Shown: positions 11,524 to 18,332 of the stretch, one piece after another
Position numbering within the stretch: position 1 is the first letter of the stretch
Layout of the letters: each line of letters begins with the position of its first letter
Position numbers and translations under genes: made by a program
The notes under the pieces: generated by a model
What the model was told of the DNA's origin: nothing
The model's input: the letters and a program-made list of their open reading frames with translations, nothing else
Database searches by the model: none
Origin: an uncultured Candidatus Poseidoniales archaeon
GTDB taxonomy: Archaea; Thermoplasmatota; Poseidoniia; Poseidoniales; Thalassarchaeaceae
Length of the DNA stretch: 50,359 nt
Reading direction: 5' to 3'
Assembly: GCA_964586945.1 (NCBI GenBank)
Contig: CAZPJQ010000002.1
Location: forward strand, 1 to 50,359

Positions 11524-12680
11524 ATGGTGAGTAACTGCTCTCTGATTATCTCCTTCGTGTATCGTTCTTCGACACCCGCGCGCATCGCTGAGAAATCCCA
11601 TTGATGTGAACGGGCCTCGTTCATGGATGAAGCAAGTCCAGACACATCGTCCACGGCTACTAGAATGCCGTCCTGTTCGCGAACTATGTCATTTGGGCCG
11701 CCACAACGGGTTGCCACTACGGGCCTACCACTCGCTAGTGATTCAACCAATACTATCCCGAAAGTTTCGTATCTACTAGGGTGAACGAAGGCGTTGATTC
11801 CTTGGAAGAAATTCGGTGCTTCTTCCCTTGGTATTGTGCCGAGGAATGATACTCGATTTGAGAGGCCTAACTCGGAAGCTAAATTCTCAAGGCCCCCACG
11901 CAATGGCCCGTCACCTGCTAACTGAAGTGTACCCCCATCGACTGACGCGAAAGCGCGCAGAAGCGTTTCGTGGCCTTTGTCGGCGACCATGTTCGCCATG
12001 TAGCCCCAAATGAACTCATCATCTTGGCGCTGTGGAGTCAATGGAAAGTTACCGATGTCTATCATGTTGGGAACCAAAGTGAATAATTCCTGGGGGATGC
12101 CTAGAATCCGATCCAAGTCCTCTGAGAGAGAATTGCTTACCGACGCTAGATATGACGCTGAATCGAGTGTTTTTGATGCTGTCATCCGTTCACGGGGTCC
12201 CGCAATGCCTCTGGCAAAGATGCTGGCGCCAACGGTGACAACCCACGGAATTCCTTCCCGCTCAGCGATGGCTCTCGCGAGAATCGCCCCCCACATCGTG
12301 CACTTTGCGTGGATGATGTCCGGCTTTCCGTTGACTTCAGAATATGCATCATACATCTTCAGTGCGAGTCGCTCTCTCTGTCTAACCGCAGCTCGATAGA
12401 CCGGTGGGATCCGTTGCAATGGACCGGGTTGCCTCATCCGTTGAACAGCGCGCACGACTGTAAGGCCGTTCTCAACTCTTACTTGGACACCATGAGTTGT
12501 TCCACCAAACCACCTCTTCGAGGGCAAATCGATAAACTGGGCGTACAAGACTCCTACCTTGTGACCCACCTCCTCAAACATCTCAGCCTGTTCTTGGAAG
12601 AATGTGCCCAAAAGTGGGGCCTCGTCACTCGGATACCATGACGGTACGAACAGAATGTGTAGTCGGCTCAAGCCACTCAC
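11505..12680 (-). CDS. GT4-family (GT-B) glycosyltransferase
   Basis: C-terminal signature FVHPSRYETFGIVLVESLASGRPVVATRCGGPNDIV and N-terminus ILFVPSWYP. GTG start. It overlaps the convergent kinase/NT gene by 19 nt. Confidence 0.85.
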   Translation of the reverse strand: MSGLSRLHILFVPSWYPSDEAPLLGTFFQEQAEMFEEVGHKVGVLYAQFIDLPSKRWFGGTTHGVQVRVENGLTVVRAVQRMRQPGPLQRIPPVYRAAVRQRERLALKMYDAYSEVNGKPDIIHAKCTMWGAILARAIAEREGIPWVVTVGASIFARGIAGPRERMTASKTLDSASYLASVSNSLSEDLDRILGIPQELFTLVPNMIDIGNFPLTPQRQDDEFIWGYMANMVADKGHETLLRAFASVDGGTLQLAGDGPLRGGLENLASELGLSNRVSFLGTIPREEAPNFFQGINAFVHPSRYETFGIVLVESLASGRPVVATRCGGPNDIVREQDGILVAVDDVSGLASSMNEARSHQWDFSAMRAGVEERYTKEIIREQLLTIYNSLV

Positions 12681-12729
12681 CTAAACTCCGCTCAGGCCGG
12701 GGCGGTCATCACGGTTGTGGAGAAGTTAC

Positions 12730-13011
12730 TCACTCTTCTTCGGAAGCAGCAGAACTCTCAGTGGCCACGGCGGCCGAAGGTGATGTGTCACCACGGAAGG
12801 CGGAGATGACCTTCGGCTCTTTCGAATCGGATGGGTCAATGACCTCGATGCTTGCGATGTTCACGAATCGCCGAGAGACCCGGTGTCGGCTACCGAAATT
12901 AGACTCAACACGGTGTCGGGCATCAGCCTCGTCGCTCGCTACAACATCCATCGTGAACTCTTGGATGTTCTTGCCATTGGGGAAGGACCCCAGCACTCGG
13001 TAGGCCTGCAT
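12730..13011 (-). CDS. rplX: 50S ribosomal protein LX (eL20 / L18Ae family) with short acidic C-terminal extension
   Basis: MQAYRVLGSFPNGKNIQEFTMDVVASDEADARHRVESNFGSRHRVSRRFVNIASIEVI fits the archaeal LX pattern M..F.V.G.F......Q.F.KE......E.A.E...S..GS.H...R..I.I..V.EI. Confidence 0.75.
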   Translation of the reverse strand: MQAYRVLGSFPNGKNIQEFTMDVVASDEADARHRVESNFGSRHRVSRRFVNIASIEVIDPSDSKEPKVISAFRGDTSPSAAVATESSAASEEE

Positions 13012-13035
13012 CGATGCGCCGACCTAGGGTGCCGT

Positions 13036-13043
13036 CTTAAACG
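13036..13043. promoter_or_regulatory. candidate shared TATA-like element (TCTTAAAC / GTTTAAGA) between divergent rplX and the S8 protease gene
   Basis: This is the only A/T-rich element in the 34-52 nt divergent gap. It lies about 25-32 nt upstream of the rplX ATG (13011), which would imply a leaderless transcript, and about 21-28 nt upstream of the second in-frame ATG of the protease (13064). Confidence 0.25.
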
Positions 13044-13045
13044 CG

Positions 13046-15208
13046 ATGGGGCTTGAAGTGGACATGGGTTCAAGCTCCGCACCCCTCGCATTGGCGCTCC
13101 TGCTCATGTTTTCTCTCGCTTCTACCCTCCCCGCGCCTACGGGCGCGCTTGGGAACGGGTTTTCGAACGAGGGGGTGTCTAACGAGGGGACTGGAAGCAC
13201 GCAAGAAGATGAACAGGGTGTGGATTACGCTCAATTTGAGGGCAGCTTGGCTTCGGGCAGAAACTCCGTCGCCGCCTCGATCAGCCAACATGGTGAACTG
13301 GACGGACATCCAGCGTGGCTGCTCGGAATCGACGGTACTGGGGTCATCATCGCCAGCGCCGACTCTGGAATCGACCGCGACCACGCCTGCTTCCGTGATG
13401 CGACAGAACCTGGGGCATCTGGTAGTGAATGGAACAATGCCACCGGCACTCCTGGAGTTGCGCATCGGAAAATCCTCTTCCTCGACGAATCAATCGACAA
13501 TTGGGATAGCCAAGGTCACGAGCATTTCACCCACGGGACCCATGTGGCGGGAAGTCTGGTCTGTAGGTCGGTCTACGAGCAAGCGGCCGAGGATGTGGAG
13601 GATTGGCTGAACGCAACACCGGGTGAGGGGACTTCTCTTTCTCACGGCGCAAAACTGGTCTTCACGGATGTTGTTGGGGATGATGGGTGGGTGGTCCCGG
13701 AACCTTCGGTTCTGTTCACCACCGCGGCCGAAAACGGGGCGGTTATTCGCTCAGACTCCTGGGGGGATGCGACCACTGACTATACTGAAAGAACACGCCA
13801 ATTCGACTCGTGGCTCCACTCCGTTCCATGGGCCCTCTCGATAGTCGCCCCGGGAAACACCGGCAACGAGGTGCAAGAGCCTGCCAACGGATTCAATGTC
13901 GTCTCAGTTGGAGTCGCCAAGAAGGATGGTAGTGATGACCTCTGGATGTTGACACCACACTCACCTACTGCCCAAGGTCGGCAGGGGGTGGAATTCGTGG
14001 TCCCTGGAGTTTCGATAGTATCGGCCACATCTGATGGTGAGCATAATTCGTACAATGATGGGTGGAAGAGCAACTCCGGTAGTTCGATGGCCGCCCCTCA
14101 AGCGGCTGCTGCTGCTGCGTTGGTTCAACAGATGGTACAGGGTGGTTGGATCGCAGGTGGTGATGAACGGTTTGTGGTGGTTTTGAATCGGCCGGGCTGG
14201 GCGACTGTAGTCGACGAGAACCTGAGTGATGGGGAGTTACTCCTTGCAGAAGGCTTCACCCCCTCTGGCTCTCTCCTGCGGGCGCTCCTCTCCTTGAGTG
14301 CTGAATCGATAGAGGGGGGCAGACAAGGTAGCATCGTGCTTGGCCCGGGGCCCGATGACTCGCAGGGTTGGGGACTCGTCAACCTCTCCAGACTGGTCGA
14401 CTTCACCGGGGTCGGGGATTCTCTTGGGGATGAGCCTCTTGACCCGGCCCCAAATATCTGGATTCATGACTCCTTCCGACTCAAAGATGACAACTGGCAG
14501 GAGGTCGTAGCGTCGTGGCTCGATGGTGAGGCTAATTCAGCTGCTGCTCTGCAAGAAAATGAGTGGCGGGGTGAGGGTGCTGAAGGACCATTTCTTAGCA
14601 ATGGTGAATCACAGTCATGGCTCATGCCGTTAGTGCCTGGTGAGGATTTTGAGGTGAGGTTGGCTTGGACATCGACCCCTCATCCAAATCTCGACGATCT
14701 GGACCTTGTCGTTGAGGTAGATGGTGAATGGTATCATGGGAACCAATTCGACGGTTGGAACAGCAGCGCCTCAGAAGAACTTGGTTTAGGACAACAGAAC
14801 AGTACTTTGGAGGGTGTTCGAATCTCCGCAGAACGGTTGGTCGGAATTGAGAGCGTGACGGTCACGGTCAAGGCGGTCAGTGTGGTGGAATCCTCACGAT
14901 TGGGAGTGGTCGGTATGAATGGTGATAGTGTTGGGTTTGCTCTTGCGGTAAAGGGTGTTCTGAGCGCTGATGTGAGGCCTGAATCTAGTTGGGAGGTTGG
15001 GCCTAATGTTGTTGGAGATGGAGAGGTGAGTAGTCTTTGGCCACTCTTCATCGCTGTCCTCTTGATAGGGGTCGCAGTAGTCATAGAAGTGGGTTGGACT
15101 CGAGGGGTGACTGTCGAGGAGGCCGGAGTGACTAAAGGTCAACCTTCAAACCCTCAAGGGGTCTCGCTGTCCTCAGCGGTAGCACCGCACACAGGTGAAG
15201 AAGAATGA
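13046..15208 (+). CDS. subtilisin-like serine protease (peptidase S8), secreted and C-terminally membrane-anchored
   Basis: Signal peptide APLALALLLMFSLASTLPA. Catalytic triad contexts IIASADSGIDRDH (Asp), HGTHVAGS (His) and SGSSMAAPQAAAAAALV (Ser). A C-terminal TM helix LWPLFIAVLLIGVAVVIEVGW is followed by a ~40-aa tail. The start may be 13064. Confidence 0.9.
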   Translation: MGLEVDMGSSSAPLALALLLMFSLASTLPAPTGALGNGFSNEGVSNEGTGSTQEDEQGVDYAQFEGSLASGRNSVAASISQHGELDGHPAWLLGIDGTGVIIASADSGIDRDHACFRDATEPGASGSEWNNATGTPGVAHRKILFLDESIDNWDSQGHEHFTHGTHVAGSLVCRSVYEQAAEDVEDWLNATPGEGTSLSHGAKLVFTDVVGDDGWVVPEPSVLFTTAAENGAVIRSDSWGDATTDYTERTRQFDSWLHSVPWALSIVAPGNTGNEVQEPANGFNVVSVGVAKKDGSDDLWMLTPHSPTAQGRQGVEFVVPGVSIVSATSDGEHNSYNDGWKSNSGSSMAAPQAAAAAALVQQMVQGGWIAGGDERFVVVLNRPGWATVVDENLSDGELLLAEGFTPSGSLLRALLSLSAESIEGGRQGSIVLGPGPDDSQGWGLVNLSRLVDFTGVGDSLGDEPLDPAPNIWIHDSFRLKDDNWQEVVASWLDGEANSAAALQENEWRGEGAEGPFLSNGESQSWLMPLVPGEDFEVRLAWTSTPHPNLDDLDLVVEVDGEWYHGNQFDGWNSSASEELGLGQQNSTLEGVRISAERLVGIESVTVTVKAVSVVESSRLGVVGMNGDSVGFALAVKGVLSADVRPESSWEVGPNVVGDGEVSSLWPLFIAVLLIGVAVVIEVGWTRGVTVEEAGVTKGQPSNPQGVSLSSAVAPHTGEEE

Positions 15209-16209
15209 GCGAGCGACTATATCTCGGAATCGATTTGGGAACCTTCCAAAGCACGATTTCAGCATCTAATGGAGAAGTACACACGGTGGAAACCGTGGTT
15301 GGAAAGCCGAAGGACCCGATTGCGAGGAACTTCTTGAAGAGAGATACTCTGTTCGGTTCGGAAGCTCTGAAGAACAAACTCGCCTGCAACCTATACCACC
15401 CACTGGCGGCTGGTGTTGCACAGGATGACGAGAATAACCTCGCCGCGGCGAAGTCGTTCGTTACCCACCTGGTCGAAACGGTCGACCCGGAAGAGTTCGA
15501 TGAGGTGTTTGGTGTGATTTGCTCACCCTCACACATCTCATTCGTGGACAAGAGCAATCTCGTTAGCATTCTACGCGGTCAGGTCAATGCAATCATGGTC
15601 GTCAGTGAGCCGTTTGCAGTAGCCTTCGGACTTGATGAGATAGGTGGTTCCATTGTCGTCGACATAGGTGCGGGAACCACAGACATCGCCCGAGTCTACG
15701 GAACCTTCCCAAGTGAAGAAGACCAGGACACTGTATCTGAAGCTGGAGACTGGATTGACGAGCGACTCATGGAGCTCGTTGCCAAGAAGTACACTGGTGC
15801 GCAACTCACCAAGGATATGGTGCGACGCTGGAAGGAGGATGGTTCCTATGTTGGCGGTGATGTTCGAGAGCAAATGGTCGAACTTTCAGTGGATGGTAAG
15901 AAACAGGTTGTCGATGTTGGCGACCTCGTACAGATTGCATGTGAGGAGTTGATTCCACACATGGTTGGTGCGATTAAGCGAATTGTTTCATCTGCAGATC
16001 CGGAGTACCAACCAATCCTACGCAACAACATCATCCTCTCAGGGGGGGGTTCTCTAATCGATGGCATCTCCGATAGGATAGCTGATGAGTTGGCTGACAT
16101 AGGGGATGTACGTGTTTGGTGCTGCGACGAGCCCATCGTTCGTGTCGCTGATGGTGCTCTAAAACTGTCAATGGTCATGCCAGATGACCAATACACAGCC
16201 ATCAGTTAA
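15205..16209 (+). CDS. actin-family ATPase, MamK-like (MreB/MamK clade)
   Basis: Actin-fold motifs: LGIDLGTFQS (phosphate 1), VVSEPFAVAFGL..IVVDIGAGTTDI (phosphate 2) and ILSGGGSLIDG (adenosine). Several strings match MamK as I remember it (VVGKPKD, YHPLAAGV, PSEEDQDTVSEAGDWIDERL, IACEELIPHMV, PEYQ). AGGTGA lies 7 nt upstream, and the ATG overlaps the protease stop (ATGA). Confidence 0.85.
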   Translation: MSERLYLGIDLGTFQSTISASNGEVHTVETVVGKPKDPIARNFLKRDTLFGSEALKNKLACNLYHPLAAGVAQDDENNLAAAKSFVTHLVETVDPEEFDEVFGVICSPSHISFVDKSNLVSILRGQVNAIMVVSEPFAVAFGLDEIGGSIVVDIGAGTTDIARVYGTFPSEEDQDTVSEAGDWIDERLMELVAKKYTGAQLTKDMVRRWKEDGSYVGGDVREQMVELSVDGKKQVVDVGDLVQIACEELIPHMVGAIKRIVSSADPEYQPILRNNIILSGGGSLIDGISDRIADELADIGDVRVWCCDEPIVRVADGALKLSMVMPDDQYTAIS

Positions 16210-16222
16210 ACGCCGATTCCGG

Positions 16223-16240
16223 CAGACCCTAGGGGGTCTG
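16223..16240 (+). other. perfect 7-bp stem / 4-nt loop hairpin just after the actin-like gene's stop codon
   Basis: CAGACCC-TAGG-GGGTCTG begins 14 nt after the TAA at 16207-16209. No T-tract follows, so it is not a classical archaeal terminator; it could be an RNA processing or stability element. Confidence 0.3.
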
Positions 16241-16316
16241 TAGAAAGGCCTTACCACCCCGTTGGCTAGCGCAGGGTTCAAGAATGGTATTGCGCCGATA
16301 GGATTGTTGATTGAGT

Positions 16317-17483
16317 ATGGCGACCCCCTCCACCTCCTCTGAATCGAGCAACGGGGCCGGTGACATGGACCGTGCTGCTCTGTCTGGAATGTTGTCCTCA
16401 TATGACTCCAAGCAACTGGTTGACGAGGTCATTACTGCATGGGAGGAGTTGGCGGCGGCCAACAAGGACCTCGCCACATCAAGCCAACGAAACCGCGTTC
16501 TCGAGCTCGACCTCGCGGAGAGAGATGAGTTGGGTGTCCCTGAGCGCGCTCGTCTACTCAAAATGGAGGAAGATATGCGCGAGAGGGAAGCGCGTATTAT
16601 CCATCTTGAGAGAATGTTGGATGAGGTACGGCGTGAGAAAGAGGGTGTTGAGAACTCGGTTGGGGCGATTCGGGTTGACGATCTTGAGAGGAACAATGCT
16701 GAACTCTCAGAGAGAAGTGAGTCTCAGGCAACGATGATTTCCGAAATGGAGGGTAAGTTGGACCAATTGGTTGACGCGTTAGAGAAAGCTGCGGAAGCTG
16801 GCCTCACTTCAATCACTGCTGACGAGGTTCGCACCTTGAACAGAGAACTTGAAGAGGCTCATCGAAGAATTGAGACAGAACAGTCTGAGAGTAACGCAGT
16901 TGGGGGTGAGCGTGACCAGTTGCGTGAGATGGTTGAACAGACCGGGAGTCTGCTCGAACAGCGAGATCTTCGAATAAAGGAGATGGAAGGGCAACTTCAG
17001 AGAATCATGGAAGGGCCCCGCTCAATCTCTGCAGAGCATGACTACCTAGTGGAGCAAATCGAGGAGTTGAAGCGCCGCCTTCTTGAGCGGAATCGTGAGT
17101 ATGAGGCTCTGCGCCGACGGGAGAGAAGACTACACAGAGAGGTATTCGAGCGGGATGAGAGAATCCAACAGATGCAATTGACGATGTCGGATATCGAAGG
17201 TGGTCTGTCAGACCGTACCGCGGAGATGAAGACGCTTGAAGAGAGTCACGAGCGCTTGTTGGCTGAAGTGGAAGGACTTCGCCGTTCAGAGAGAACGAGG
17301 GAAGTGGTCAGTGGAGCATTCCAAGACACTCTTGGAGTTCTTCGCTCCCATGAACAACGCAAAGCACGGCGCGAGGCGTTGGGAATCGAGGAAGATGATT
17401 CGATTCCTGAACCCGGAGATGGTAATATGCCTGGAGGAACAGCACCAGCGGCCTTGCGTGACATCGATGAATTGGATGAATGA
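16317..17483 (+). CDS. long coiled-coil protein (hypothetical; E/R/L-rich heptad-like sequence throughout)
   Basis: About 390 aa that is almost entirely charged/Leu-rich helix-former sequence (e.g. RNREYEALRRRERRLHREVFERDERIQQMQL). It has an S/T-rich N-terminus and an acidic C-terminal peptide LRDIDELDE. No enzymatic motif. The track start at 16311 is TTG; an ATG lies at 16317. Confidence 0.7.
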   Translation: MATPSTSSESSNGAGDMDRAALSGMLSSYDSKQLVDEVITAWEELAAANKDLATSSQRNRVLELDLAERDELGVPERARLLKMEEDMREREARIIHLERMLDEVRREKEGVENSVGAIRVDDLERNNAELSERSESQATMISEMEGKLDQLVDALEKAAEAGLTSITADEVRTLNRELEEAHRRIETEQSESNAVGGERDQLREMVEQTGSLLEQRDLRIKEMEGQLQRIMEGPRSISAEHDYLVEQIEELKRRLLERNREYEALRRRERRLHREVFERDERIQQMQLTMSDIEGGLSDRTAEMKTLEESHERLLAEVEGLRRSERTREVVSGAFQDTLGVLRSHEQRKARREALGIEEDDSIPEPGDGNMPGGTAPAALRDIDELDE

Positions 17484-17489
17484 GGTTGT

Positions 17490-18332
17490 TCATCCCCTCA
17501 TTTCTGTGATCAAAACACTCAGTGCCTTGCGTAGATTTTCGATGTCGTCGAACTGTTCGGTGAGATTTCCCGTTACGACATAATCCGCTCCGGCCTCTAC
17601 CGCAGCGCGCGCGGACTGGCCGTCCCTAATTCCCCCACCAACGATGAGAACCAATTTCTCCGACGCATTCCTTGCCGCTTGAATCAATCTGGTGGAAACC
17701 GGTGTTTCTGCCCCACTACCCGCTTCAAGATAGAGAAGAGAAAAACCGTACGCCTCGGCACATACCGCATACGCTGCTGCAAGTTCCTCATCATCTACTT
17801 GTAGAAGGTCAGCTCTGCCAACCTCACCGACCTTACCACCTGGAGCACATATGACATAACCCATCGAAAGTGGTGTCACTCCTGCCTCCTTGATGTAAGG
17901 GGCGCCCATCACCTGTTCGCCAACAAGAAATTGACGCTCTCTACTATTCATGAGCATCATGAAAGTGATACCATCTGCAGCAGAGGAAAGCGCGTGGGCA
18001 CCTGCGGGAAAGAGAACCACAGGGACCTTCCAATCATCTTCAGACATGCCTGCATCCTGACTTGCATTCCAGGAACAAAGTTCGAGTGCTTCTTGGATTG
18101 ACTCCACAGTGGCATGGACATTATCTCCATCCGTTCCTGTTGAGCCGCCAACAAACACCATTCGACTCCCGGCACTGACCGCAGCTACGGCTCGCTTAGC
18201 AGCATCTTCGTGACTCTGTAAATTAGGGTCAATGAGAATCACATGGCCGGCGCCACGACTACTATCTCGCACATATGACAACAAGTCTAGGTGTGAAGAT
18301 GGACGCATGGCCACCCGAAGTGGAGCCGGCAT
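17490..18332 (-). CDS. geranylgeranylglyceryl phosphate synthase (PcrB/GGGPS family)
   Basis: VILIDPN, VFVGGSTG and LIVGGGIRDGQSARAAVEAGADYVVTGN are the TIM-barrel GGGPS/PcrB signatures. Confidence 0.85.
   Translation of the reverse strand: MPAPLRVAMRPSSHLDLLSYVRDSSRGAGHVILIDPNLQSHEDAAKRAVAAVSAGSRMVFVGGSTGTDGDNVHATVESIQEALELCSWNASQDAGMSEDDWKVPVVLFPAGAHALSSAADGITFMMLMNSRERQFLVGEQVMGAPYIKEAGVTPLSMGYVICAPGGKVGEVGRADLLQVDDEELAAAYAVCAEAYGFSLLYLEAGSGAETPVSTRLIQAARNASEKLVLIVGGGIRDGQSARAAVEAGADYVVTGNLTEQFDDIENLRKALSVLITEMRG

Follow-up and report, generated by a model that had tools for sequence, protein, structure and literature searches.

An S8 protease frame that probably overprints the promoter and leader of a MamK-like actin gene in a genus of Marine Group II archaea

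In the window, the whole stretch of 50,359 nucleotides analysed here, the gene of a membrane-anchored S8 protease runs into the start of a gene for a MamK-like actin. We propose that the protease frame overprints the promoter and leader of the actin gene and that actin probably keeps a promoter of its own within the protease gene. The overlap of the two genes and the tail of the protease look like a local by-product, not proof of cooperation between protease and actin. The host belongs to the Marine Group II archaea, in the family Thalassarchaeaceae of the Poseidoniales (MGIIb). Marine Group II, an uncultured group, ranks with the most abundant archaea in surface seawater, and a conserved MamK-like actin beside an S8 protease raises the question of the role of a filament in a 0.7-µm coccus. 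We found no published description of the cassette in the literature searched for actin in these archaea. To argue from overlap to co-translation and from co-translation to partnership is tempting but weak, and that argument is now removed. We offer in its place a model in which the two genes have promoters of their own and the leader is structured, cis elements with coordinates, and a sharper docking idea with peptide motifs. The locus would be a clean case of an ORF overprinting its neighbor's promoter and leader, and it calls for caution before the conserved residues of a short tail are named protein motifs.

Organization of the protease-actin locus

The genes and protein segments of the locus are as follows.

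13046..15208, + strand: membrane-anchored subtilase (S8), 720 aa (ORF list, Pfam, AlphaFold2, Foldseek).
13046..13126, + strand: N-terminal hydrophobic helix of S8, residues 12-27 (hydropathy; AlphaFold2 helix 12-27).
13259..14980, + strand: predicted extracellular part of S8, with the catalytic domain at about residues 72-465 and a beta-sandwich at about 470-645 (pLDDT mostly >90).
15032..15103, + strand: single C-terminal transmembrane (TM) helix of S8, residues about 663-686 (hydropathy 2.62; AlphaFold2 helix 665-686).
15104..15205, + strand: disordered, predicted cytoplasmic tail of S8, residues 687-720 (pLDDT about 30, and below 50 over 684-720).
15205..16209, + strand: MamK-family actin-like ATPase, 334 aa (NCBIfam, PDB).
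16223..16240, + strand: perfect hairpin CAGACCC-TAGG-GGGTCTG, 14 nt past the actin stop.
16311..17483, + strand: coiled-coil protein, 390 aa (ORF list; likely start at the ATG at 16317).

From the N-terminus on, the S8 protein comprises a hydrophobic helix, the catalytic domain, a second domain rich in beta structure, the TM helix and the tail. It matches Pfam Peptidase_S8 (PF00082) over residues 97-366 with 79.1 bits against a cut-off of 21.8 (E 4.4e-22), and the triad D106/H166/S347 and the oxyanion residue N271 are invariant in 60/60 full-length orthologues. The AlphaFold2 model has a mean pLDDT of 78.6 and a pTM of 0.80, with confident domains from about residue 72 to 645. The sequence itself matched no PDB chain at E 0.001; Foldseek aligned the model to 333 PDB chains at E ≤0.001, and among the matches listed all of the top-ranked ones are subtilases. 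We take the protein to be, in all likelihood, an active KP-43/Tk-SP-like subtilase on the cell surface that is held in the membrane by one C-terminal TM helix. The topology proposed by the sequence-only reading is borne out: a hydrophobic helix at the N-terminus, a catalytic domain on the outside, and a single TM helix near the C-terminus followed by a tail of 34-38 aa. The tail sequence quoted in that reading is correct. The placement of the tail on the cytoplasmic side agrees with the AlphaFold2 model and with the presence of K or R within 6 residues after the TM helix in 73/78 distinct orthologue tails. The N-terminal helix may be either a signal peptide or a signal anchor. A basic n-region is absent from this helix in the window S8, and an alternative start lies at 13061. 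In other orthologues a conserved pro-region of some 100 aa comes ahead of the catalytic domain; this pro-region is mostly missing from the window S8 and its closest relative, and a Pfam I9 match was absent in all 6 S8 orthologues scanned. No PGF-CTERM/archaeosortase signal was found, with no such model at E ≤0.01 in the NCBIfam scan and no PGF before the TM helix; where such a signal would have a short basic tail, that of the window S8 is acidic and 34-38 aa long.

The actin-like protein scores 335.2 bits with the NCBIfam MamK model (NF040964), which is below the cut-off of 400 and still the best family, ahead of BeeR (203) and MreB (79). Its PDB matches are to MamK over residues 3-328 of 334, with E 6.5e-65 for 5jyg and values of about 7e-65 for all of 5jyg, 5ljv and 5ljw. 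Actin orthologues across the order share 66-94% identity. The hairpin at 16223..16240 may serve as a 3′ end element. Lacking a T run, it was not picked up by the terminator scan. Downstream, the coiled-coil protein ends in an acidic C-terminal peptide that is conserved in 77 distinct sequences.

Across the order, the genes form a string of LX on the minus strand, then the S8 protease, the MamK-like actin and the coiled-coil protein on the plus strand, and the GGGP synthase (GGGPS) on the minus strand. We found S8 5′ of the actin gene in 61/61 loci with enough flank, from across the order, which supports the sequence-only reading by its own test of adjacency in relatives, and the coiled-coil gene lies 3′ of the actin gene in 73/73 loci. 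Since the unrelated flanking genes are equally syntenic (LX in 57/57 and GGGPS in 55/57 loci), adjacency alone is no proof of a functional link between S8 and actin.

Distribution of the S8/actin overlap

The actin ATG occupies 15205-15207 and the S8 TGA 15206-15208, yielding a 4-nt ATGA overlap. This overlap at 15205-15208 had been noticed from the sequence, as had the AGGTGA inside the S8 3′ end, which is present at 15193-15198 with a 6-nt spacer to the ATG. From the two, co-translation had been inferred, and conservation of the overlap in relatives had been proposed as a test. We observe the overlap in only 12/82 distinct loci, all of them members of the window's genus, in which the S8 ORF is open throughout and the overlap measures 4 or 8 nt. 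The long ORF ends 39-249 nt 5′ of actin in 66/82 distinct loci, and a long upstream ORF is undetectable in the other 4. Additionally, a crude ORF call of the whole genome places a 4-nt overlap at 79 of 832 same-strand neighbor pairs, and the ATGA overlap is not beyond chance in this genome. The case for co-translation is weakened both by the confinement of the overlap to one genus and by a promoter-like box and leader that make separate transcription of actin likely. Overall, the interpretation drawn from the sequence is partly supported, by the conserved adjacency and by the side of the membrane on which the tail lies.

Promoter-like box and structured leader

Three conserved elements precede the actin start.

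15138..15149, + strand: conserved box GTCAACCTTCAA (consensus GTGAACCTTSAA), at -67 from the actin ATG.
15176..15188, + strand: leader hairpin GCGGT-AGC-ACCGC, 5′ of the Shine-Dalgarno sequence and read as A-V-A-P-H in the S8 frame.
15193..15198, + strand: Shine-Dalgarno sequence AGGTGA of the actin gene, 6 nt before the ATG, read from the sequence.

The box codes for G-Q-P-S-N when it is translated as S8. At least 10 of its 12 positions match at -67..-60 in 67/82 distinct loci, and its TTSAA core is found in 79/82. In relatives, a sister box, GTGAAGGTTCAAG, lies 5′ of the coiled-coil gene, with 9-10 of 12 positions matching in 73/86 distinct upstream regions. TTSAAR is enriched at -40..-21 of starts, and one copy of the box stands 38 nt 5′ of the ATG of the RFC large subunit (C62:3277). 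A box-to-ATG distance of 38 nt at that gene is as expected for a leaderless gene. Because of its position, its conservation and this one other gene, we read the box as a promoter; it is most likely a BRE/TATA-type candidate promoter of the actin gene. It could be the site of a regulator instead of a general promoter. The composite motif GAA..TTSAAR occurs rarely in this genome: of 40 hits on both strands, only 3 lie in the 120 nt before a crudely called ORF start.

A leader hairpin, defined as at least 4 bp within -48..-9 with its 3′ end 9-36 nt before the ATG, is present in 69/72 distinct leaders and is built from 39 different stems. In a formal test within MGIIa, covariation is weak: both partners have changed in 3 pairs, and 5-7 of 500 shuffles reach the observed values. 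RNAalifold gave no consensus structure for the alignment of the whole order. The second actin paralogue shares this layout. We infer that the hairpin functions in the mRNA. GGTGA is conserved in the alignments, and a Shine-Dalgarno sequence ahead of the actin start is normal here because GGTGA is enriched genome-wide at -10..-1 of starts.

In the alignment, the coding sequence of the window's genus is in register with intergenic sequence of other genera. Elsewhere the conserved box and structured leader are intergenic, whereas here they fall within the 3′ end of S8, and separate transcription of actin is therefore likely. We infer that the direction of change was from separate genes to overlap. 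The ancestral form would be that of every other genus examined, in which S8 stops soon after the TM helix and is followed by 39-249 nt of non-coding sequence that would hold the control elements of actin: the box at about -60 to -67, the small leader hairpin and the GGTGA Shine-Dalgarno sequence. In the window's genus the S8 stop would have been lost. The frame passes the box, the hairpin and the Shine-Dalgarno sequence because the MGIIb form of the box, TTCAA and not TTGAA, has no in-frame TGA; at MGIIa locus L104 the S8 frame enters the box too and stops at the box TGA. The frame so extended would run on to its end 4 or 8 nt within the actin gene. Transcription of actin most likely still begins at its own promoter, now within the S8 gene, and termination-reinitiation at the ATGA would add to actin translation solely on read-through transcripts.

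Conservation of the S8 tail in the window's genus

By the upstream alignment, the tail DNA of the window's genus is the non-coding region 5′ of actin in other genera. Its conservation is at the nucleotide level. At codon positions 1, 2 and 3, the invariant columns of the tail number 12/26, 15/27 and 11/27; those of the actin gene number 41/50, 39/50 and 10/50. The pS value to the closest species is 0.10 for the tail, from only 7 differences, and 0.23 for the rest of S8. The spacer between the Shine-Dalgarno sequence and the ATG is GAN-rich in this genus and gives the tail an acidic end, GEEE or GDDDE. The cytoplasmic tail of the window's genus would thus be largely an overprint of the actin promoter and 5′ leader, with conserved residues that probably mirror constraints on DNA and RNA. 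In other genera, 50/61 long tails also have an acidic end (genome baseline, 18%), although it is encoded at a different place there, so some selection at the protein level is possible.

Relationship between the protease and the filament

S8 could be an ordinary extracellular peptide-degrading enzyme in an old, stable neighborhood, with tail motifs that are generic to anchored surface proteins. We give this slightly less than an even chance. The entire five-gene string is syntenic, and tails that are acidic and rich in aromatic residues are common on other proteins of the genome with a C-terminal anchor (38 candidates listed). Additionally, according to PMC6864105, every MGII MAG codes for between one and four extracellular subtilisins of family S8, which likely act on external peptides, and such proteases are thought to feed Marine Group II on dissolved protein. 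However, S8 stays beside actin even though insertions of 474-3126 nt separate actin from the coiled-coil gene in 6/73 loci. S8 and actin are also missing together, with no S8 orthologue found in G023 or in any of 10 MGIIb genomes that lack actin and are at least 91% complete. Finally, a P-x(0,1)-F motif persists in tails that are otherwise unalignable.

These same observations could point to a module in which the S8 tail peptide binds the actin-like filament or its coiled-coil partner and the filament positions or clusters the protease. This is a wider form of the docking suggested by the sequence-only reading, and we consider it unlikely. The module reading draws on the constant adjacency of S8 and actin, on their joint absence, and on two actin-less genomes that keep only a coiled-coil gene remnant of 162-164 aa between LX and GGGPS. 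The P-x(0,1)-F motif occurs in 36/61 long tails, above residue shuffles (mean 9.0, maximum 18 in 2000), and the acidic tail ends exceed the genome baseline. The conserved end of the coiled-coil protein, which in MGIIa can read DPVVFEDED, is similar to S8 tails like PPPFVEEE, YPFFEEE and GPYFEDE. There is also precedent: PMC5173319 describes C-terminal peptides of ParR and arcadin-2 that dock in a hydrophobic groove of ParM and crenactin. However, P-x-F is absent from all 12 tails of the window's genus, in which the conserved blocks fall on DNA elements. Short and basic tails make up 17/78 distinct tails, although the actin and coiled-coil genes persist at those loci, and the motif does not follow the kind of C-terminus found on the coiled-coil protein; L055 and L026, for instance, belong to MGIIb and have P-F tails. 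The abundance of acidic, aromatic-rich tails on other anchored proteins and the equal synteny of LX and GGGPS also count against docking. The joint loss may be one event in one clade, and none of seven distant actin homologues in other Thermoplasmatota has an S8 neighbor.

The strongest form of this idea, in which S8 is the cargo of the filament, its tail and the coiled-coil peptide dock on the same actin site, and the filament positions or clusters S8, seems to us improbable. The docking tail would be P-x-F with an acidic end in most genera and, in the window's genus, an acidic end that overprints the actin leader. If this were true, one stretch of DNA in the window's genus would serve as promoter, 5′ leader and docking peptide, and an internal filament would determine where an extracellular hydrolase sits on the envelope of these tiny cocci.

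There is a similarly small chance that the genes form an obligate operon, in which actin is made mainly from the S8 transcript by ATGA termination-reinitiation and the box is an RNA element or a regulator's site: the 4- or 8-nt stop/start overlap in 12/12 genus members, the strong Shine-Dalgarno sequence at a proper distance, the rarity of the composite box and a hairpin that a ribosome on S8 would open ahead of the Shine-Dalgarno sequence fit this, but the box, hairpin and Shine-Dalgarno sequence are unchanged relative to genera with separated genes, the box stands at a leaderless-promoter distance 5′ of another gene, and equal output of the two is unlikely because S8 is an exported membrane protein and actin a cytoplasmic, probably abundant filament protein.

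Comparison with known systems

Termination-reinitiation coupling at ATGA has been shown in bacteria and archaea. The window pair likewise shares ATGA, with a Shine-Dalgarno sequence inside the upstream gene; its overlap is limited to one genus and lies atop the apparent promoter and leader of actin.

Among subtilases, KP-43 (1wmd), SubHal (5fax) and Tk-SP (3afg) have, as in the window S8, an S8 catalytic D-H-S domain followed by a beta-rich domain, the extra domain in these three being a jelly roll. The Foldseek E values are 4.7e-25 for KP-43, 2.2e-24 for SubHal and 2.7e-18 for Tk-SP, with a TMt of 0.76 to the first two. Unlike these enzymes, the window S8 adds a C-terminal TM anchor and a predicted cytoplasmic tail.

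The MamK of magnetotactic bacteria, whose partners include MamJ, McaA/McaB and coiled-coil Mad proteins, is matched by the window actin over its full length, and here too there is a coiled-coil neighbor. Among the products of magnetosome operons are, in addition, two serine proteases bound to the membrane, MamE and MamO, of the trypsin/HtrA-like type. By contrast, the host here is archaeal and planktonic, the score falls below the NCBIfam cut-off of 400, and the protease belongs to S8. PMC12748827 deals with coiled-coil proteins that partner MamK-like actins.

In crenactin/arcadin-2 and ParM/ParR, the product of the actin-adjacent gene has a conserved C-terminal peptide behind a non-conserved linker (PMC5173319). 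The coiled-coil protein has a comparable conserved peptide and many S8 tails carry a motif; the S8 tail of the window's genus has no P-x-F motif.

The overprinting that we propose resembles known cases in that the coding sequence of one lineage aligns with non-coding DNA of its relatives and its conservation is independent of codon position. Unlike ORF-over-ORF overprinting, the DNA overprinted here is a promoter-like box, a 5′ leader and a Shine-Dalgarno sequence.

Conservation of the protease-actin junction

The membrane-anchored S8 subtilase gene (S8) and the downstream MamK-like actin gene meet in a short stretch of overlapping coding and regulatory sequence, followed by a coiled-coil gene:

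13046-15208, + strand: S8 protease ORF, 720 aa (ORF list, raw sequence)
15138-15149: box, candidate promoter element, reading G-Q-P-S-N in the S8 frame
15176-15188: leader hairpin, reading A-V-A-P-H in the S8 frame
15193-15198: SD AGGTGA (GGTGA block), reading T-G-E-E-E in the S8 frame
15205-16209, + strand: actin-like ORF, 334 aa (ORF list, raw sequence)
16311-17483: coiled-coil ORF, 390 aa, 3′ of the actin gene

The raw sequence agrees with the sequence-only reading that the actin ATG (15205-15207) and the S8 TGA (15206-15208) overlap as ATGA at 15205-15208 and that AGGTGA lies inside the S8 3′ end; AGGTGA stands six bases ahead of the actin ATG. However, a 4-nt overlap is found in 79 of 832 same-strand neighbor pairs of the genome by a crude ORF call, and GGTGA peaks directly upstream of starts genome-wide, so an overlap with an SD is not unusual in itself. 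We located the S8 end in 82 distinct sequences upstream of the actin gene. The long upstream ORF ends 4 or 8 nt into the actin gene in only 12 of them (the window, its closest relative, and ten others at 86-90% actin identity), stops 39-249 nt before the actin ATG in 66, and is undetectable in 4 owing to contig ends. The overlap is not conserved across relatives but restricted to the window's genus. Termination-reinitiation coupling occurs in archaea, and translational coupling of S8 and actin is possible on read-through transcripts, but co-translation is not implied by the overlap as had been argued.

Three metatranscriptome runs (shares 0.05, 0.05, and 0.00) yielded short assembled contigs of 90-99% likeness, which show neither transcript starts, ends, nor levels. 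The RNA contigs over the actin gene have their first letters at 15185 (X1) and 15203 (X2) and their last at 16250 and 16231, these being contig ends and not transcript ends, and one RNA contig lies on S8 (13366-13515). No RNA contig extends 31 letters to each side of the S8/actin junction. Uncovered parts prove nothing.

Conserved elements upstream of the actin gene

When the 90 nt that precede the actin ATG are aligned across 25 loci, the S8 coding sequence of the window falls in register with non-coding sequence of other genera, and three conserved blocks emerge: the box, the hairpin, and the SD. Of 82 distinct loci, 67 have the box GTGAACCTTSAA at -67 to -60 with at least 10 of 12 positions matching, and 79 have its TTSAA core. 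The box sequence GTGAACCTTCAA has only one other exact copy in the genome (G000:C62:3277-3288); it sits upstream of the replication factor C large subunit gene, 38 nt from the ATG, which is the promoter distance expected for a leaderless archaeal gene. A palindrome, GCGTCGACGC, lies 3′ of this second copy. TTSAAR is enriched at -40 to -21 of crude gene starts (25 and 27 per bin vs ~6-15 in other upstream bins). In relatives, the coiled-coil gene has a sister box, GTGAAGGTTCAAG, 40-47 nt (some 28 nt) before its chosen ATG. Of 86 distinct upstream regions, 73 score 9-10 of 12 for this box; its longer form, GTGAAGGTTCAAG(A/T)(A/G)TGG, resembles the actin-gene box, and only GGTTCAAGAATGG of it is kept in the window (16275-16287).

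These sequence comparisons make the box a candidate promoter of the actin gene. From its position at -67 to -60, the actin mRNA would carry a leader of ~30 nt whose 5′ end falls at the foot of the hairpin. As a general promoter of the genome the box was rejected: the full composite motif occurs 40 times, in only 3 cases close to an ORF start, and this rarity suggests that the box may be the site of a specific regulator. A sigma-70/terminator scan returned no promoter, and its 4 terminator-like sites equal the 4.0 expected. Separately, a perfect 7-bp hairpin (CAGACCC TAGG GGGTCTG, 16223-16240) without a T run lies 14 nt past the actin stop.

Of the 72 distinct leaders, 69 contain a hairpin within -48 to -9 whose stem has at least 4 bp and whose 3′ end falls 9-36 nt ahead of the actin ATG. 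These hairpins use 39 different stems, among them GCGGT/ACCGC (window), TCCGC/GCGGA, TCCC/GGGA, ATCCCC/GGGGAT, and CGCGC/GCGCG. Because the hairpins occupy different alignment columns, RNAalifold found no consensus structure for the 72 whole-order leaders. Covariation was weak in 37 MGIIa leaders by a count on named structures. An Rfam search over 12500-17600 with E values up to 5 gave two chance-level matches (a miRNA and snoRNA sR14) and none at the junction. The genome's second actin paralogue, on contig C3 (L035:5540-6574, 46% identical), has the same upstream layout, with an element richer in A/T, a hairpin of 5 bp, and GGTGA, which also speaks for the promoter reading of the box. Its neighbors differ, with a zinc-ribbon protein upstream and a convergent membrane protein ending in ...KFSEEE.

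Probable origin of the overlap and of the protease tail

The residues conserved within the genus in the S8 tail (the C-terminal segment after the TM helix, residues 687-720, cytoplasmic side) are exactly those encoded by the box, hairpin, and SD. In ten genus members sharing one register, the invariant columns of the last 80 nt of S8 number 12/26, 15/27, and 11/27 by codon position, whereas the same count over the opening 150 nt of the actin gene gives the usual coding pattern of 41/50, 39/50, and 10/50. Relative to the closest species, pS of the tail is 0.10, below the 0.23 of whole S8, on seven differences only. Given the even spread over codon positions and the low tail pS, conservation of the tail is best explained by a constraint on DNA or RNA.

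How the tail may have arisen is suggested by other genera. In the closest other genus within the family, S8 ends with the TM helix and RYPNRPRL, its stop lying 90 nt before the actin ATG, immediately upstream of the box. The MGIIa box GGTGAACCTTGAA holds a TGA in the frame GGT GAA CCT TGA, and in the MGIIa locus L104 the S8 frame enters the box and stops at the TGA in GGTGAACCTTGA, 49-61 nt before the actin ATG. In MGIIb, the branch of Marine Group II that includes the window, the box variant TTCAA has no stop in that frame. If the original S8 stop was lost in the window's genus, the frame would continue through the box as far as the following stop codon, which lies within the actin gene. We consider it reasonably probable that the overlap and tail represent a genus-specific extension of the S8 ORF over the promoter-like box, leader hairpin, and SD of the actin gene.

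The S8 protease and the coiled-coil protein

The profile scan identifies S8 as a subtilase (Pfam Peptidase_S8, 79 bits), and all 60 full-length orthologues share D106, H166, S347, and the oxyanion N271. An AlphaFold2 model built from 44 orthologues (mean pLDDT 78.6, pTM 0.80) contains the following parts:

Residues 12-27: N-terminal helix
Residues 22-71: low-confidence part
To ~residue 645: two confident domains
Residues 665-686: C-terminal helix
Tail: pLDDT ~30

The order first read from sequence, a signal peptide, a catalytic domain, one C-terminal TM helix, and then the tail, agrees with the model. Purifying selection acts on S8 as a whole (pN 0.033 and pS 0.23 vs the closest species). Upstream of the S8 gene itself, CTTAAAC is found ~25 nt before the second ATG, a further point for reading the actin-gene box as a promoter. 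We also observed that ~100 aa of a conserved N-terminal pro-region are absent from S8 of the window and its closest relative (window 13046-13260; cf. L041:2514-3010 in a relative), while all other S8 orthologues have the pro-region and are 819-1369 aa long; the short window gene is nevertheless under purifying selection relative to the closest species. Long cytoplasmic tails, acidic and aromatic with F-D/E-D-D-like repeats, are carried by many C-terminally anchored surface proteins of the window genome, for which 38 candidates are listed.

The coiled-coil protein has a C-terminal peptide that is conserved order-wide (window 17430-17480) behind a variable acidic linker. Its terminus reads PGG..AP.AL(R/K)DID.L.E in MGIIb and PGG(S/T)GDPV(V/I/L)(F/Y)(E/D)DED in MGIIa, the protein ending in ...PGGTAPAALRDIDELDE in the window and in ...PGGSGDPVVFEDED in MGIIa.

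Gene order and the relation of the protease to the filament

The proposed conservation of S8-actin adjacency holds: among 80 related loci, S8 lies upstream of actin on the same strand in all 61 with enough flank. The coiled-coil gene is downstream of actin in 73 of 73 loci, 6 of which have 474-3126 nt inserted between the two. Ribosomal protein LX (LX, - strand) flanks 57 of 57 loci and GGGP synthase (- strand) 55 of 57. Since these flanking genes are equally constant, adjacency is a property of the whole neighborhood and alone gives no argument for a protease-actin partnership. The actin orthologue was found in 37 of 41 close relatives. Among 301 genomes sampled from the phylum, it is present in all 42 that represent one family within the order (identity 74-77%) and in 7 of the 21 from the window's family, and the sister family has it in 0 of 8. 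A handful of distant Thermoplasmatota have actin homologues at 37-44% identity. Three distant homologues (41-44%; L122:5746-7035, L123:161-1831, and L124:8423-10279) are each followed by a protein without a Pfam match, whose N-terminal half is globular and conserved and whose C-terminal half is a long coiled coil.

That S8 is a mere neighbor of the actin pair, which is compatible with the ORF extension, falls a little short of an even chance in our estimate. The genes upstream of the distant actin homologues encode a DNA ligase, an Ig-like surface protein, Kae1, and a HAD hydrolase, S8 not being among them, and the single distant genome that has a fair S8 relative carries it on a different contig. 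Extracellular S8 proteases are a general feature of MGII (PMC6864105). Literature searches found no paper on the cassette, though supplementary tables such as Table S5 of PMC6864105, on peptidases, may include the protease. Against mere neighborhood, S8 keeps its place directly beside the actin gene, insertions occurring further down, and searches of all 10 actin-less MGIIb genomes (91-97% complete) and of genome G023 found no S8 orthologue. In two actin-less genomes, all that is left between LX and GGGP synthase is a 162-164 aa coiled-coil remnant (L119:3452-3946 and L120:4470-4958), which shares 37-39% identity with the N-terminal part of the coiled-coil protein. However, joint absence of S8 and actin may reflect one deletion in one clade. 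The remnants belong to an MGIIb genus with small genomes, from which the protease, actin, and the rest of the coiled-coil gene are gone.

Docking of the S8 tail on the actin filament, as earlier suggested, would give the protease a functional link to the filament system, and we regard it as unlikely; it draws on motifs of other genera and not on the window tail. Among 78 distinct tails, 61 are long, and 36 of these contain P-x(0,1)-F (shuffles: mean 9.0, maximum 18 in 2000), but P-x-F is found in 0 of 12 tails of the window's genus, and the 17 short, basic tails occur where the actin and coiled-coil genes are kept. An acidic end is present in 50 of the 61 long tails against a genome baseline of 18%, yet acidic, aromatic-rich tails are common among other anchored proteins of the genome, and the acidic end was rejected as specific to the S8 tail. 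The conserved end peptide of the coiled-coil protein recalls S8 tails such as PPPFVEEE and YPFFEEE, but P-x-F does not track the type of coiled-coil terminus. A change of tail motif with the coiled-coil C-terminus by lineage matched only in part, and was rejected as evidence because of counter-examples.

Comparison with known systems

The actin-like protein is of the MamK family (NCBIfam MamK 335 bits, under the cut-off of 400; BeeR 203 bits), and the MamK structure 5jyg in the PDB matches it at E 6.5e-65. MamJ and MamE/MamO are proteins of the magnetosome system. By sequence, S8 matched 0 chains of the PDB. By Foldseek, the S8 model is nearest to KP-43 (1wmd; E 4.7e-25, TMt 0.76), with SubHal and Tk-SP also among the nearest and kexin and furin ranking behind. 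The C-terminal peptide of FtsZ binds FtsA. For a tail that might dock on a filament, there are precedents in crenactin/arcadin-2 and ParM/ParR, where the C-terminal peptide of a neighboring gene's product docks in the actin groove (PMC5173319).
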